A stretch of DNA of 64,000 nucleotides from Terriglobia bacterium (GTDB taxonomy: Bacteria > Acidobacteriota > Terriglobia > Acidiferrales > 2-02-FULL-67-57): NCBI GenBank assembly GCA_046757645.1, contig JBHHYS010000001.1:33793-97792 (forward strand). The letters run 5' to 3'. This document shows, piece after piece, positions 27,994 to 42,523 of this stretch (position 1 is its first letter; every line of letters starts with the position of its first letter). Made by a program: the position numbers and the translations under genes. A model generated the notes under the pieces. That model was given only the letters and a program-made list of their open reading frames with translations. It had not been told where the DNA came from and ran no database searches.

Positions 27994-28049
27994 GTCTAAC
28001 CTAGCAGCTCCTGCCGCTCGGCCCCGTGGCAGGAGCCACGGGGTTGAAC
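27994..28049 (+). repeat. attC-like imperfect palindrome 1 (56 nt)
   Basis: GTCTAAC-ctagca-GCTCCTGCC-gctcggccccgt-GGCAGGAGC-cacggg-GTTGAAC. The ends fit RYYYAAC and GTTRRRY, and the internal 9-bp stem is perfect. Confidence 0.45.
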
Positions 28050-28778: not shown

Positions 28779-28858
28779 GTTCAACCCAGCGGCTCCCGCC
28801 GCTGGGCCCCGTGGCATCCCTCGGCTTCGCTCGGGGCAAGGGAGACAGGGGGTTGAAC
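28779..28858 (+). repeat. attC-like imperfect palindrome 2 (80 nt)
   Basis: GTTCAACCC...GGGTTGAAC has perfectly complementary 9-nt ends fitting RYYYAAC/GTTRRRY. The left half (CCAGCGGCTCCCGCCGCTGGGCCCCGTGGCA) is homologous to repeat 1 (CTAGCAGCTCCTGCCGCTCGGCCCCGTGGCA), with a 24-nt internal insertion. Confidence 0.45.
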
Positions 28859-37743: not shown

Positions 37744-38268
37744 ATGAGCGGGCAAGGCCCGCCCGGGGTTGCCCGGGTGGTGGCGGAGATGGTCAAGGAC
37801 AAGAGCGAACTGGACACCCCTCTGGCCGCGCAAGTAGCGGGCGCCATCGCCAAGAGGTTTGGCGTCAGGCCGGACGAAGTGGCTGTTTTCCGGGTGGGGG
37901 GCGGGGGCAAGCAACTCGAGTTCATCGTCCCGGAGAAACTAGCTCAGGTGGGCACAATCCCTCTGACAAGTGTGACCTCCCTGGCGGTGCGCACCCTGCG
38001 TGAGCGTCGGCCGGAGATCGTCAACAACTTTAGCACTGCCATGCATCTGAGGGTGTTCGAAGGGGTGCCGCTCAGCGTGGAGGGGAGCGAGCCCATCCAG
38101 AAAATCCTCAGCGTCCCTATCGTGGTCGCGGGGAAGGCCGCCGGAGTGATTCAGGTTTCGCGCAAAGGCAAGTCTCCCGGCGCCGCCGGCCCCGACTTCA
38201 CCCCCAAGGATGTGGATGAACTGAACCAAGTGGCCGCGGCGCTCGCCTCATGTTTTCCCCCCGACTAG
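37744..38268 (+). CDS. GAF domain-containing protein
   Basis: 174 aa, GAF-like pattern (..ILSVPIVVAGKAAGVIQVSRK..). Confidence 0.55.
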   Translation: MSGQGPPGVARVVAEMVKDKSELDTPLAAQVAGAIAKRFGVRPDEVAVFRVGGGGKQLEFIVPEKLAQVGTIPLTSVTSLAVRTLRERRPEIVNNFSTAMHLRVFEGVPLSVEGSEPIQKILSVPIVVAGKAAGVIQVSRKGKSPGAAGPDFTPKDVDELNQVAAALASCFPPD

Positions 38269-40061
38269 CCGAGAAGAGCGTCACGGCGGCCTCCGGTGGC
38301 CGCCGGGCGGTTTTGCGTCTTCTCACCGCCCTGTTGGCAGTGCTGCTGGCCGCGCCGCTCGCTCCCGCGCAGGCAGAGCCGCACGCCGCTGAGACCCCGC
38401 GAATCCCGCCAAGCGGGACAGGGCAGACGCTCCGGATTACGGTGCTGGCCACCACCGACGTGCACGGCAATCTCTGGCCGTACGACTACCTGCGGGGGCA
38501 AGCGGCTGAGCGCGGCCTGGCCAAGGTAGCCAGCTACGTGAAGCGTGTGCGGGTGCGCCAGCCCCACACTTTGCTGGTGGATTGCGGCGACACCTTCCAG
38601 GGCACGCCGCTCGCCTATCTCTACGCGGAGAAAAATACTGTGGAGCTCAACCCGGTGGTGGCGGCGATGAACGCCGTGGGCTACGACGCCATGGCGGTCG
38701 GCAACCACGAGTTCAACTTCGGGCTCACCACGCTGTGGCGGCTGAAGGAGGAGGCGGCGTTTCCCATCCTGGGGGCGAACATCGTCTCCACCTACCACGA
38801 CACCCGGCGAGACTTCACGCCGTACGTTATCCGCCGCGTGGGCGGCGTGCGGGTGGCGATTCTGGGAATGGTGACCCCGGCGGTGCCGCGCTGGGAGCCG
38901 CCCGACCACCGCATCGGTTACAAGTTCCGCGACTTGGTGGAAACGGCAAAACGATTCGTGCCCAAACTGCGCCGCAAAGCCGACCTGGTCATCCTGCTGG
39001 TGCACTCCGGTCTGGGGCGCGACCCCGAGACCGGCGAACCGCGCCGGCAACTCTACCCGGAAGAGAACCGCGTCTGGGACATCGCCGAGCAGGTTCCCGG
39101 GATTGACGCCATCTTCTTCGGTCACTCCCACCAGGAGCTGGCGGGGAAGGAAGTGAATGGCGTGTTGCTGGTGCAAGCGAAGAACTGGGCGCAGTCGGTC
39201 GCCCAGGCGGAGTTCGTGCTGGCGCGGGAAAAGGCCGGGGCGCCCTGGCGGCTGATTGAGCGCCAGAGCCGCTTGGTGCCGATGGATGAAACCATCCCCG
39301 CCGACCCGGAAATCCTTGCGCTGACCCGCGAGGCCCACGAGCGCACCGAGCGCTACTTGAACACGGTGGTGGGGCAGCTCGATCGAGAGCTCGACGCCCG
39401 CACCGGGCGCATCGAAGACCATCCGCTGGTGGAGTTGATCCAGCGCGCGCAACTTCACTACGGGCGCGCGGAGGCGTCGCTGGCCTCGCTGTTCTCCACC
39501 CGGACGCGCTGGGTGGCGGGCCCGGTGACGATCCGCGACGTCTATGGACTTTACTTCTATGAGAACCAGCTCTTCACCGTGGAAATCACCGGCGCCCAAC
39601 TCAAAGAGGCGCTGGAGTACTCAGCCCGCAGCTTCAAGAGTTATCCCTGGCCCCGACAAGGTCGGGGCTCGCCGTTTGCTGACCTGCCGGGCTACAACCA
39701 CGACATGGCCGAAGGGGTCAGCTACCAGATCGACCTCAGCCGACCGCCGGGGGAACGCATCGTGGAGTTGCGCTTTGACGCCGCCCCACTCGACCCCGCC
39801 CGCCGGTTGCGCCTGGCGCTGAACAGTTATCGCTGGTCGGGCGGCGGCGGCTACCCCGAAGCTTCGGGGCTACGGCACGCCAAAGTGGTGCACCGTGCCA
39901 GGAAGCAAGTCCGGGAGCTGATCATTGACTACCTGCTCGAGCATCAACCGCTTGACACTACCGTGGATCACAACTGGGAGATCGTTCCCGCCGCGGCCCG
40001 CCAGGCATTGCGCGACTGGGTCGCGTCGCCCGAAGCCGTCATGGTTTCTCCCGTCAACTAG
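38250..40061 (+). CDS. bifunctional metallophosphatase/5'-nucleotidase (UshA/CpdB family), secreted
   Basis: TTDVHGNLWPYDY, DCGDTFQG and GNHEFNFG, plus a 5'-nucleotidase C-terminal domain. Signal peptide present. The start is uncertain because it overlaps the GAF gene's end. Confidence 0.85.
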   Translation: MFSPRLAEKSVTAASGGRRAVLRLLTALLAVLLAAPLAPAQAEPHAAETPRIPPSGTGQTLRITVLATTDVHGNLWPYDYLRGQAAERGLAKVASYVKRVRVRQPHTLLVDCGDTFQGTPLAYLYAEKNTVELNPVVAAMNAVGYDAMAVGNHEFNFGLTTLWRLKEEAAFPILGANIVSTYHDTRRDFTPYVIRRVGGVRVAILGMVTPAVPRWEPPDHRIGYKFRDLVETAKRFVPKLRRKADLVILLVHSGLGRDPETGEPRRQLYPEENRVWDIAEQVPGIDAIFFGHSHQELAGKEVNGVLLVQAKNWAQSVAQAEFVLAREKAGAPWRLIERQSRLVPMDETIPADPEILALTREAHERTERYLNTVVGQLDRELDARTGRIEDHPLVELIQRAQLHYGRAEASLASLFSTRTRWVAGPVTIRDVYGLYFYENQLFTVEITGAQLKEALEYSARSFKSYPWPRQGRGSPFADLPGYNHDMAEGVSYQIDLSRPPGERIVELRFDAAPLDPARRLRLALNSYRWSGGGGYPEASGLRHAKVVHRARKQVRELIIDYLLEHQPLDTTVDHNWEIVPAAARQALRDWVASPEAVMVSPVN

Positions 40062-40063
40062 AA

Positions 40064-40100
40064 GCAAAGGAGGCAAAGGAAGCAGAGGAGGCAAAAGAAG
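40064..40100 (+). repeat. purine-rich 9-mer tandem repeat (x4)
   Basis: GCAAAGGAG GCAAAGGAA GCAGAGGAG GCAAAAGAAG, starting 3 nt after the nucleotidase stop. Confidence 0.7.
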
Positions 40101-40150
40101 AGTGGGGGCGAACCGCGCGCGGATAAGCAGGTGAGGAAACGTGAGGTAAG

Positions 40151-40879
40151 CTATACAAACAATTCCAGAGCACGAGTGTAGTTCAACCGACTCTGATAGT
40201 ATTCTTCAACTGCTTCGTAATCCACAAACTTACACCTCCCTGCGACTTGCCTGAAAGCACCACGGCTTGCCTCCCGATCAAATTGAGGTCGGCGTTCTGC
40301 TGGGGCCACGACGAAGAACTTTGTTTGGAAATCGACGAGTTCTGAGAACTTAGTAAGCGCGCTCCTGAAGTTCGTGGAGTCTTCAATTTCGAAAGCAGTC
40401 ACAGGGAATTGTCGGGTATTAAACCAAGTTACATCAATATACCTGCTGGCTTGGACAATGTGGGCAAACGTAAAGAGCGGGATTTTCTGAAGCGTTACAA
40501 GTCGGCCAAGAGTCTTCCCGTCGAAGACCTTAGATCTATCTGGCGCGTACGTCAGGAATCCCTCGTGGTTGCCAATTTCAACAAGCATCCCCTGTACGCG
40601 CGTGTGTTTATAATTCCGTTGTTGCTCCAGTTTCCGCGGCCTTGGTGCTTTCGGCAAGCGGTCCAGATATTTGGTGAGTGCATAGACACCCAAGCCGATA
40701 CGCCTAAATCGAGAGTCTCTCTGCACTCGTTCCTGGATGGTTTTGAATGGAGTCTTGCCAGTCAGAGGCCGGTATTTTCCTATTTCCCTGTAGACCAACG
40801 AGAGTGGTGCGATATATCCATTATCGAGCAGTACGCGTTCTATTGCTTCTGAGAACGTTAGCTGATTCTTACGCTGCAC
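40151..40879 (-). CDS. HARE-HTH domain protein with restriction-endonuclease-like C-terminal domain
   Basis: N-terminus LTFSEAIERVLLDNGYIAPLSLVYREI...GKTPFKTIQERVQRDSRFRRIGLGVYAL matches the HARE-HTH pattern. C-terminus HTRVQGMLVEIG...YIDVTWF...AFEIEDST resembles a PD-(D/E)xK-type core. Confidence 0.6.
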   Translation of the reverse strand: MQRKNQLTFSEAIERVLLDNGYIAPLSLVYREIGKYRPLTGKTPFKTIQERVQRDSRFRRIGLGVYALTKYLDRLPKAPRPRKLEQQRNYKHTRVQGMLVEIGNHEGFLTYAPDRSKVFDGKTLGRLVTLQKIPLFTFAHIVQASRYIDVTWFNTRQFPVTAFEIEDSTNFRSALTKFSELVDFQTKFFVVAPAERRPQFDREASRGAFRQVAGRCKFVDYEAVEEYYQSRLNYTRALELFV

Positions 40880-40916
40880 CGTATGCGATTCTCTGCTTTG
40901 CGATTCAGCTACATAA

Positions 40917-41096
40917 CTACAAGTAGAAGCGAACGATTCGTGCTAGTTCTTCACGTGTTGATGCTCTGCCAAGATAGAAAACACGACCATCGACCAGCAC
41001 CCAAACGTCTCCGTTTTCCAGCCAGGAGATGAGCTTTCGTGCTAGTTTTGCACGGAAGAATTCTGTGTAGACTCCAAGTGAATTCTTCAATTCCAT
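40917..41096 (-). CDS. hypothetical 59-aa protein upstream of the HARE-HTH gene
   Basis: Below the ORF-track cutoff. ATG 41096 is preceded by GGAGGAGG. Sequence: MELKNSLGVYTEFFRAKLARKLISWLENGDVWVLVDGRVFYLGRASTREELARIVRFYL. Its stop lies 37 nt before the next gene. Confidence 0.45.
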   Translation of the reverse strand: MELKNSLGVYTEFFRAKLARKLISWLENGDVWVLVDGRVFYLGRASTREELARIVRFYL

Positions 41097-41206
41097 GGGG
41101 TCCTCCTCCTTTGGAACTTGCTCCTCGATTAATTGCCGCCGAGGAGCCTAGAAGGAACATCTGAGCCACAGAGTTGCAGGATAGTCTCCGATTGTAACAT
41201 CTTTGG

Positions 41207-42523
41207 CTAGTCGTAGTACTCGGTGCCCAGGTGGGTGATGAGGGGCTCGCCGCGGAGCCAGCGCAGGGTGTTCTTGAGTTTCATCATTTGGATGAAGAGG
41301 TCGTGTTCGGGGTAAAGCTCGGGGGCGCACATGGGCGACTTGAAGTAGAAGCTGAGCCACTCCTGGATGCCGCGCAGCCCAGCGCGCTGGGCGAGGTCGA
41401 GGAAGAGGGCGAGGTCGAGCACCAGGGGCGCGGCCAGGATGGAGTCGCGGCAAAGGAAATCAATCTTGAGCTGCATGGGATAGCCGAGCCAGCCGAAAAT
41501 ATCAATGTTGTCCCAGCCTTCCTTGTTGTCGCCGCGAGGGGGATAGTAGTTGATGCGCACCTTGTGGTAGAAGCCGCCGTAGAGCTGGGGATAGAGCTGG
41601 GGCTGGAGGATGTATTCCAGCACGCCCAGCTTCGATTCCTCTTTGGTCTTGAAGGAGTAAGGGTCGTCGAGCACCTCACCGTCGCGGTTGCCCAGGATAT
41701 TGGTGGAGAACCAGCCGCCCAGCCCGATCAAGCGCGACTTCAGCCCGGGGGCGATGATGGTCTTCATCAAGGTCTGCCCGGTCTTGAAATCCTTGCCGGC
41801 GATGGGAACTTTCTTTTTCTGGGCCAGCTCCTGCAAAGCGGGGATGTCCAGGGTGAGGTTGGGGGCGCCGTTGGCGAAGGGCACGCCCTCCTGGAGCGCC
41901 GCGTAGGCATAGAGCATCGAAGGCGCAATCGTCTCGTGGTTCTGCTTTAGGGCTTTTTCGAAACTGTCCAGGTCGCGGTGGACCGTGTCGGGTTTCTGAT
42001 AGACCTCCGTGGAGCCGCACCAGATCATGATCAAGCGCTGCGCACGGTTGCGGGCCTTGAACTGCTGGATGTCCTCCCGGAGCTGCTGCGCCAAGTCCCA
42101 CTTGCTCCCGCCTTTCTTGACGTAGGGGCCGTCGAGCTTGCGCACGTAGCGGGTGTCGAATACCCCCTTCATGGGCTTGATGGAGCTGAGGAAGGGCTTC
42201 AACTGGCTCAAGTGCTCGTGGTTCAGCACACCGGCCTTGCACGCCGCCTGGTAGGCGTTGTCCGGGAAGATGTCCCACCCCCCGAAGGTCAAGTCGCTTA
42301 ACTCGGCCAGGGGAACGAAGTCTTTGATCCGGGGAACCCGGTTTTCGGGCCGCTTGCCCAGGCGAATCGTGCCCATCTGGGTGAGCGAGCCGATGGCGGG
42401 GGCGTGGCAGCGCCGGACCAACTCCACCCCGGCGAAAAACGTAGTGGCCACCGCGCCCAGCCCGGGCGTCAGCACCCCGAGCCTGCCCTTGGCAGGCGCA
42501 ATCCTGCTCGGCCGACGCATCAT
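41207..42523 (-). CDS. ino1: inositol-3-phosphate synthase
   Basis: 438 aa, myo-inositol-1-phosphate synthase family throughout (e.g. NILGNRDG, SILAAPLVLDL). Confidence 0.93.
   Translation of the reverse strand: MMRRPSRIAPAKGRLGVLTPGLGAVATTFFAGVELVRRCHAPAIGSLTQMGTIRLGKRPENRVPRIKDFVPLAELSDLTFGGWDIFPDNAYQAACKAGVLNHEHLSQLKPFLSSIKPMKGVFDTRYVRKLDGPYVKKGGSKWDLAQQLREDIQQFKARNRAQRLIMIWCGSTEVYQKPDTVHRDLDSFEKALKQNHETIAPSMLYAYAALQEGVPFANGAPNLTLDIPALQELAQKKKVPIAGKDFKTGQTLMKTIIAPGLKSRLIGLGGWFSTNILGNRDGEVLDDPYSFKTKEESKLGVLEYILQPQLYPQLYGGFYHKVRINYYPPRGDNKEGWDNIDIFGWLGYPMQLKIDFLCRDSILAAPLVLDLALFLDLAQRAGLRGIQEWLSFYFKSPMCAPELYPEHDLFIQMMKLKNTLRWLRGEPLITHLGTEYYD

Follow-up and report, generated by a model that had tools for sequence, protein, structure and literature searches.

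How does a gene that resembles one half of a restriction–modification (R-M) system persist with no methyltransferase (MTase) beside it? As a rule, a Type II restriction nuclease kills a cell that lacks the matching methylase, and orphan restriction (R) genes are expected to decay. This question is raised by a low-GC islet (40062..41206) within a 64,000-nt stretch of a Terriglobia bacterium genome (assembly GCA_046757645.1, contig JBHHYS010000001.1, positions 33,793 to 97,792 of the forward strand; hereafter the window). The islet lies between the stop codons of two convergent genes, encoding a 603-amino-acid (aa) 5′-nucleotidase on its left (38250-40061, plus strand) and the 438-aa myo-inositol-1-phosphate synthase INO1 on its right (41207-42523, minus strand), and its true ends fall inside this interval. 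It contains two co-oriented open reading frames (ORFs) on the minus strand, for a 59-aa and a 242-aa protein, which a first-pass annotation had interpreted as a possible type IV-like, or novel two-component, defence or addiction module. As judged from its sequence relatives, the 242-aa family is instead the R subunit of a Type II R-M system, of which the window copy is an orphan and not an evident Type IV enzyme.

The 242-aa protein (40151..40879, minus strand, GTG start) has the same sequence as a hypothetical protein from a Terriglobia metagenome-assembled genome (MAG). It belongs to a family of at least 268 relatives, nearly all 240-245 aa long and about 50-60% identical, whose hosts include Patescibacteria, Omnitrophota, Planctomycetota, Chloroflexota, Zixibacteria and Bacteroidota; more remote relatives bear the annotation ‘type II restriction endonuclease’. 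The C-terminal part (residues 84-242; 40154..40630, minus strand), where a nuclease-like core had been suspected, matches the PADLOC restriction endonuclease (REase) model REase_II PDLC03534 with an E-value of 2.4e-10 (residues 90-229 against profile positions 176-325 of 351). A precomputed Pfam tag, PF27126 NmeDI_C, is attached to the window protein and to 120/120 relatives among the matches listed, and a local copy of Pfam gave no match to the window protein. Five putative catalytic residues on the minus strand, E101 (40577-40579), D149 (40433-40435), E164 (40388-40390), E166 (40382-40384) and K177 (40349-40351), are invariant in 91/91 family sequences assembled. In AlphaFold models these residues fall on an alpha-beta-beta-beta-alpha-beta core (C-domain pLDDT 91.6; whole-protein AF2 model 89.6). 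By profile, then, the protein is a new member of a catalogued nuclease family (Pfam NmeDI_C; PADLOC REase_II). Neither the single sequence nor the family profile found a match in PDB by sequence, and the nuclease assignment rests on sequence profiles rather than on a structural match.

The N-terminal domain (residues 1 to ~75; 40655..40879, minus strand) includes the near-invariant stretch TIQERVQRDxRFxRIGLGVYAL, within a domain whose residues R54, D55, G62 and G64 do not vary in any of the 91 sequences (91/91). The first-pass annotation had matched this region to the HARE helix-turn-helix (HARE-HTH) module. The corresponding Pfam family, PF05066, does not match the window protein even at E<=1; it does match 8/32 relatives weakly (best E 0.001), it is the only family to recur among the relatives, and one of them carries the UniRef name ‘HTH HARE’. 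In Foldseek searches, the model of this domain resembled forkhead (probability 1.0) and RNAP-delta RpoE (0.96) winged helices, both at E>0.03, as well as that of Rok. Sequence and model together point to a divergent HARE-type winged helix, the HARE assignment being weak. In essence, both domain calls of the first-pass annotation were right.

Both islet genes recur at the identical junction in a syntenic relative (L014 in our numbering of compared loci). Between window and L014, aa identity is 85% for INO1, ~67-79% for the nucleotidase, 76% for the nuclease and 56% for the small protein. The nuclease gene has a nonsynonymous divergence (pN) of 0.146 against a synonymous divergence (pS) of 0.90 and is under purifying selection. 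For the 59-aa ORF (40917..41096, minus strand, ATG start), pN is 0.28 and pS 0.74 in its own frame, and the other two frames give pN ~ pS. Because pN is lower than pS in both comparisons, we regard the pair as real, selected genes, in agreement with the earlier description of two co-oriented minus-strand genes; the islet that contains them looks foreign. The leader and spacing described there also hold: a Shine-Dalgarno sequence, GGAGGAGG, can be read at 41102..41109 (minus strand), with 5 nt between it and the ATG that opens the 59-aa ORF, and a 37-nt spacer (40880..40916, minus strand) separates the two genes. Only a weak Shine-Dalgarno-like sequence precedes the GTG.

The assignment to Type II comes from relatives in which the nuclease forms canonical R-M pairs. 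In L100/L101, only 4 nt separate the nuclease gene from the end of an intact upstream gene for a 250-aa N6_N4 MTase (motif I VLELFTGSGTT, motif IV AHPPY). In L108, from an Anaerolineae MAG, an intact 402-aa N6_N4 MTase (DPFSGRGTT ... SPPF) starts 21 nt after the nuclease, which is 60% identical to that of the window and among its closest relatives. These MTases retain both motif I and motif IV. Since relatives are paired with intact MTases in this way, the window gene is, as judged from sequence, an orphaned Type II restriction subunit. That the islet lacks a methyltransferase had been correctly noted before; the step from there to a type IV-like system does not survive the pairs in L100/L101 and L108. 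Remnants of a methylase were also sought in the islet, and none were found, the best tblastn match (E 0.96) being on the wrong strand.

Pieces of the same MTase family lie beside the cassette in ~40 other loci, and a composite of these pieces matches PADLOC MTase_II PDLC03351 from end to end (E 4e-131); a frequent downstream neighbour of the nuclease matches REase_II PDLC03537 (E 1.5e-33). In ~40 loci, N6_N4 methylase ORFs truncated to 80-227 aa are found upstream of the small ORF (for example L019 656-1087, L023 1016-1519, L063 3007-3492, L048 745-1143 and L080 2254-2673). The truncated proteins keep the N-terminal part and motif I and have lost motif IV and the catalytic half, and their pN/pS of 0.08-0.35, at pS up to 0.96, indicates selection as strong as on housekeeping flanks. 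They look like exapted proteins rather than pseudogenes; a reading of methylase fragments and small ORFs as decaying sequence was rejected on their pN/pS of 0.08-0.57. Two loci have the opposite arrangement: immediately behind the nuclease comes the 3′ part of the methylase (L026 912-1529; L027 directly after 1609), comprising either motif I onward or the last ~84 aa only, whereas in most other loci it is the 5′ part that lies upstream. The cassette appears to sit inside R-M loci, or to overwrite their middle, at differing break points. The intact methylase–nuclease pair of L100 is followed by uncharacterised proteins of 130 aa (1628-2020) and 120 aa (2032-2394), conserved in L101 and without a Pfam match.

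Other relatives show that the nuclease can be kept with no partner at all. L022, L079 and L092 have neither a small ORF nor an adjacent MTase, and all catalytic residues of their nucleases are intact; L102 likewise has no small ORF upstream of the nuclease. Between L079 and L092 the nuclease has a pN/pS of 0.19, indicating purifying selection. Because such nuclease-only loci stay under selection, the small protein is not universally essential. In L079 and L092, a near-consensus sigma-70 promoter (TTGACA, 17 nt, TATAAT) is located ~60-90 nt upstream of the nuclease start. The pS of their nuclease genes (0.66) exceeds that of the flanking genes (0.24-0.36), which suggests allele exchange at a fixed site.

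We next consider the small gene. Given enough upstream sequence, nearly all homologue loci show a co-oriented ORF, ~60-80 aa in length (up to 114 aa in the type designated sD). In most loci it stops between -4 and +37 nt from the start of the nuclease gene, and the two frequently overlap by 4 bp; against the 37 nt of the window, the gap is -4 to +27 nt in most relatives. At least four families can be told apart among these ORFs, and no relationship between the families could be detected: sA, sB, sC (possibly with sD) and W, the type of the 59-aa protein. Purifying selection acts on these families as well (pN/pS 0.13-0.57). W is known only from the window and L014. Searches of 5.8e9 and 1.8e9 proteins returned no homologue of the 59-aa protein beyond itself, and it took a direct reading of the DNA to find the orthologue in L014. 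Conservation of the 59-aa protein beside nuclease homologues therefore holds for L014, with purifying selection, and not for the other homologues; what most loci share is the slot, occupied by a small co-oriented ORF. A word-indexed search returned nothing but the protein itself; an exhaustive HMMER search also matched two tandem-repeat proteins, but these matches were spurious sums of weak short-motif similarity. Two further origins were considered and rejected: that the small families are remote homologues of one another, except possibly sC and sD (58% probability), and that they are in-frame relics of a methylase C-terminus, for which the hhalign probability was <1% in every family.

The type of small ORF follows the nuclease clade, with one clade carrying both sB and sA. 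Within the pairs L047/L065, L055/L077 and L063/L080, nucleases that are 73-87% identical are preceded by sB in one case and sA in the other. In each pair the genomes are near-identical and the host gene context is shared; it is the small gene alone that has been replaced in place. Where the methylase is intact, an intact small ORF is missing: L100 lacks one altogether, and in L108 a degenerate sC-like remnant is all that is left. Some lineages have additional genes directly 3′ of the nuclease. One of these, c8 (L020 5714-6202), contains a ...D...FDLK... motif reminiscent of PD-(D/E)XK enzymes, and another, c10 (L039 1812-2111), is under purifying selection and encodes 99 aa rich in Cys. No profile library gave a match to either.

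Comparison of the nucleotidase/INO1 junction identifies the islet as an insertion polymorphism. Three syntenic relatives that keep the sdhCDAB-GAF-nucleotidase/INO1 order have an empty junction of 132 nt (L094), 117 nt (L095) or 86 nt (L097), from which we conclude that the islet was inserted. In L096 (5709-6584), the same junction holds a 291-aa thioredoxin/AhpC-type gene and no nuclease islet; genes have thus been inserted at this convergent junction more than once. The G+C content falls to 0.46-0.52 over about 40050-41250, from 0.64-0.69 in the flanks, bearing out the drop reported by the first-pass annotation. We rejected low GC as a sign of recent arrival, however: the nuclease gene has lower GC than its flanks in 22/23 loci (mean -0.11), so this is a trait of the family and no evidence for a recent event. 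Recent arrival is also disfavoured by the presence of the islet in L014, a relative with saturated synonymous sites.

Several sequences near the islet ends had been proposed as its borders. An imperfect purine-rich tandem repeat of a 9-mer (consensus GCAAAGGAG, 3.6 copies, 82% matches) does occur directly after the nucleotidase stop, at 40064..40100, with a computed extent of 40064-40095/40100. Because the sequence that follows the stop, CTAGAAGCA..., resembles the empty-site sequences TTAGAAGTGCA and CTAGAAACCAGCA, the repeat probably starts within the 3′ sequence of the host rather than marking where an element ends. On the right, the hairpin also exists (41120..41147, minus strand; an 8-bp stem, 41120-41127/41140-41147, with a 12-nt loop), in the 110 nt that follow the stop codon of INO1. 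The hairpin lacks a U-tract and is not shared by L014, and the spacer that bears it folds no better than shuffled sequence (z = -0.18); neither a border nor a terminator role is supported. The adjacent sequence GAGCCACAGAGTTGCAGG, described as attC-like, agrees with the 17-mer in question at 13/17 positions, and no match within 3 mismatches was found. That 17-mer, GAGCCACGGGGTTGAAC, has three copies elsewhere in the window with 0-2 mismatches (28033-28049; 28779-28795, minus strand; 28842-28858), all within 830 bp of each other where 0.33 would be expected by chance; these are unrelated to the islet. No inverted-repeat structure was found 3′ of the nuclease gene, and an integron gene cassette was rejected for want of an attC site at the cassette end. 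The sole candidate for terminal repeats or a target-site duplication, CTAGAAGCAA/CTAGAAGGAA, matches at 9/10 positions, which is chance level; no terminal direct or inverted repeats and no target-site duplication were identified, the empty-site junctions being not alignable. A phage or viral origin was likewise rejected, as neither GenBank phages nor IMG/VR yielded any relatives, and plasmids carry only distant relatives of the nuclease. These distant relatives include ~420-aa proteins with an NmeDI_C-like domain on a Cupriavidus plasmid (L098 3305-4570), Enterococcus pEC369 (L106 2772-4055) and an Azospirillum plasmid (L107 2733-4004). They are annotated ‘type II restriction endonuclease’, are solitary with no annotated methylase, and lie inside heavy-metal resistance loci (P-type ATPase, DUF2933, CopY or DmeF) in three unrelated phyla.

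The reading we favour, tentatively and at somewhat less than even chances, is that of a compact two-gene operon in which an orphan Type II restriction subunit is tolerated through protection by an unlinked methylase and is accompanied by an accessory small protein. The operon was acquired by insertion where two convergent housekeeping genes face each other with their terminator sides. Read-through from INO1 is the probable source of its transcription, given the co-orientation and the lack of any promoter-like site found in the islet; across the family, 48/53 loci have the cassette in the same orientation as the host gene upstream. The 59-aa protein would be translated from the same transcript just upstream of the nuclease, in the position that controller (C) proteins occupy in classical C-R operons, and may serve as an accessory particular to this lineage, adjusting how much nuclease is made or how active it is. 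A regulator or an immunity factor, as the first-pass annotation had it, is possible. The HARE-type winged helix would bind the DNA target and the NmeDI-like domain, through E101, D149, E164, E166 and K177, would hydrolyse DNA, presumably with Mg2+ as expected from the family. The separation of binding and cleavage domains, as in R.NmeDI, suggests by analogy that cutting could occur beside rather than within the site. In relatives, the N6/N4 DNA methyltransferase paired with the nuclease would guard host DNA; in the window organism, an unlinked methyltransferase of the same specificity would have to provide the shield.

Precedents exist for the parts of this proposal. R.NmeDI, the founding member of the nuclease family, is an experimentally characterised, active Type II REase (PMC2095814), and the window nuclease is predicted to be active as well. 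As summarised in PMC4738411, HARE-HTH domains in prokaryotes occur as fusions with the REases of N6A R-M systems. An unlinked MTase is a documented explanation for solitary REases, applying in 57/272 cases (PMC3488263).

A number of observations weigh against this reading. No PF01555-type MTase was found in the islet or elsewhere in the 64-kb window, with the L100 and L108 methylases included as queries, and protection in trans is purely our inference, the MTase search having covered the window. A Foldseek search of the C-domain model against PDB gave no significant nuclease match, only weak REase-like ones at E>0.1. The small proteins show no HTH and no known fold or family: W, sA, sB, sC and sD have no Pfam, PADLOC, NCBIfam, PHROG or PDB relatives, so that a C-protein-like role is a positional analogy. 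Finally, L047 (sB) and L065 (sA) have flanks that are 92-95% identical and nucleases that are 87% identical. Since such near-identical hosts carry unrelated types, the slot turns over by replacement, and unrelated, swapped small families are more readily explained by a protein partner evolving under conflict than by a simple regulator.

Such a partner is the core of the main rival explanation, a toxin/inhibitor module derived from an R-M system, which we consider doubtful but serious. Here, after loss of the methylase, the small upstream protein would protect the host by inhibiting the nuclease directly; loss or shut-off of a labile inhibitor, for example during phage infection, would free the nuclease and give addiction or abortive-infection defence. 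The turnover between near-identical hosts described above speaks for it, as do the selection on the small genes and the lack of an intact small ORF at the intact-MTase loci L100 and L108, although this apparent mutual exclusion comes from two clades only. The architecture is that of a type II toxin–antitoxin system, with a small co-oriented gene directly upstream of the toxin gene and often a 4-bp overlap. In such systems the toxin is not kept without its antitoxin, however, and here the nuclease occurs without a small ORF in L022, L079, L092 and L102, in the first three also without an adjacent MTase and yet under purifying selection. Nor do W, sA, sB, sC or sD have a known antitoxin or DNA-binding fold, or match any known antitoxin, anti-restriction protein or solved structure.

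A broader version of this idea, which we think unlikely, concerns the family as a whole. It would represent the repeated conversion of Type II R-M systems into a methylase-free module, in which interchangeable small proteins from at least four unrelated families (W, sA, sB, sC/sD) keep or trigger the nuclease and catalytically dead methylase fragments, maintained by selection, take part in many lineages; W and the window nuclease would then represent the smallest version of a new defence or addiction system descended from R-M.

The remaining explanations are less likely than either the unlinked-methylase reading or the inhibitor module. A modification-dependent (Type IV or IIM-like) nuclease, whose HARE-type winged helix would read a modified base and leave unmodified host DNA safe, is improbable by our estimate. 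It would account for the missing methylase here and in many relatives and for the viability of nuclease-only loci, and the near-invariance of the DNA-binding domain across phyla suits a common chemical mark better than diverse specificities. Winged-helix–nuclease fusions are moreover proven 6mA-dependent enzymes, and HARE-HTH has been proposed as a modified-base reader (PMC11037411). The intact MTases in tight operon with the nuclease in L100 and L108 argue against it, at any rate for the mark that this methylase sets, as an enzyme cutting its product would be suicidal. The best PADLOC match is a Type II REase model, with no Type IV model among the PADLOC matches of the 242-aa protein, and no SRA, Mrr, McrB/C or DpnI-type match was found for it in Pfam, NCBIfam or PDB.

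We regard as similarly improbable a domesticated, non-defence role, in which a site- or structure-specific nuclease, or a DNA-binding protein, would serve repair, recombination or regulation and be harmless without a methylase. In several lineages the nuclease is 78-95% conserved against 70-86% for its flanks, the gene can lie inside housekeeping arrays (for example between panB and panC), and the distant NmeDI_C-domain proteins of the metal-resistance loci are solitary. Against this stand the patchy distribution across phyla with ~55% identity between them, the GC below that of the flanks in nearly all loci compared, the insertion/absence polymorphism, and a physical tie to R-M genes in about half of loci; the synonymous divergence above that of flanking genes in L079 and L092 suits an exchangeable accessory gene. 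A selfish homing-type cassette, cutting empty targets (intergenic or in MTase genes) and copied in during repair, is barely credible, for although a compact, promoter-less cassette occupies many different intergenic sites, is embedded in or overlaps MTase genes (L026/L027 among others), and fills a junction in the window and L014 that is empty in relatives, the family shows long-term residence under purifying selection at rates like those of host genes, has no target-site duplications or conserved ends that we could find, is absent from phage and viral collections, and contains intact canonical R-M pairs.

The window instance alone is modest, and its interest lies in the family-wide pattern. 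An orphan R gene and many of its relatives across phyla are intact under purifying selection, against the expected decay. If an unlinked methylase protects the host, this would be an ordinary case, one more documented ‘solitary REase’. If the small proteins restrain or activate the nuclease, it would be a case of R-M evolving into a toxin–antitoxin-like or sensor–effector defence module, and the small families would be a source of new nuclease inhibitors. HARE-HTH–REase fusions and solitary REases are both already known. In the literature we found no description of recurrent retention of this R gene without its methylase, of unrelated small proteins filling the slot beside R, or of selection-maintained methylase fragments without the catalytic half.

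Among known systems, the closest by profile is R.NmeDI of Neisseria meningitidis, whose C-terminal ~140 residues are homologous to the window protein and which shares with it a two-domain layout with a separate N-terminal DNA-binding part. R.NmeDI is 351 aa long, its gene overlaps that of its C5-methylase, and it recognises RCCGGY and cuts on both sides (PMC2095814). The window protein, by contrast, has 242 aa, a HARE-type winged-helix N-domain and no methylase, and its family pairs with N6_N4 (PF01555) methylases. The HARE-HTH–endonuclease fusions of Aravind & Iyer (2012), as summarised in PMC4738411, likewise combine a HARE-type winged helix with an REase and N6/N4 methylases. The HARE-HTH match is weak and sub-threshold here, and we found no description, for that class, of a variable small upstream gene or an R gene kept without its methylase.

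The winged-helix–nuclease Type IV enzymes DpnI, HhiV4I and their relatives (PMC11037411) also join a winged-helix reader to a nuclease in ~230-250 aa, and need no methylase, just as the window copy has none. The window protein has no sequence similarity to the DpnI-type winged-helix domain, however, and its relatives stand in operons with intact methylases, contradicting cleavage of the same mark. In R-M operons under C-protein control, the C gene lies just upstream of R or overlaps it, and C proteins are of the Xre-type HTH. The small genes studied here share the position immediately upstream of R, sometimes with a 4-bp overlap, but comprise at least four unrelated families without an HTH or other profile match. 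Solitary Type II REase genes (Ershova et al. 2012, PMC3488263) likewise consist of a full-length R gene with no adjacent methylase. Compared to these, the orphan state described here recurs across many lineages under purifying selection, with a dedicated small gene beside R.

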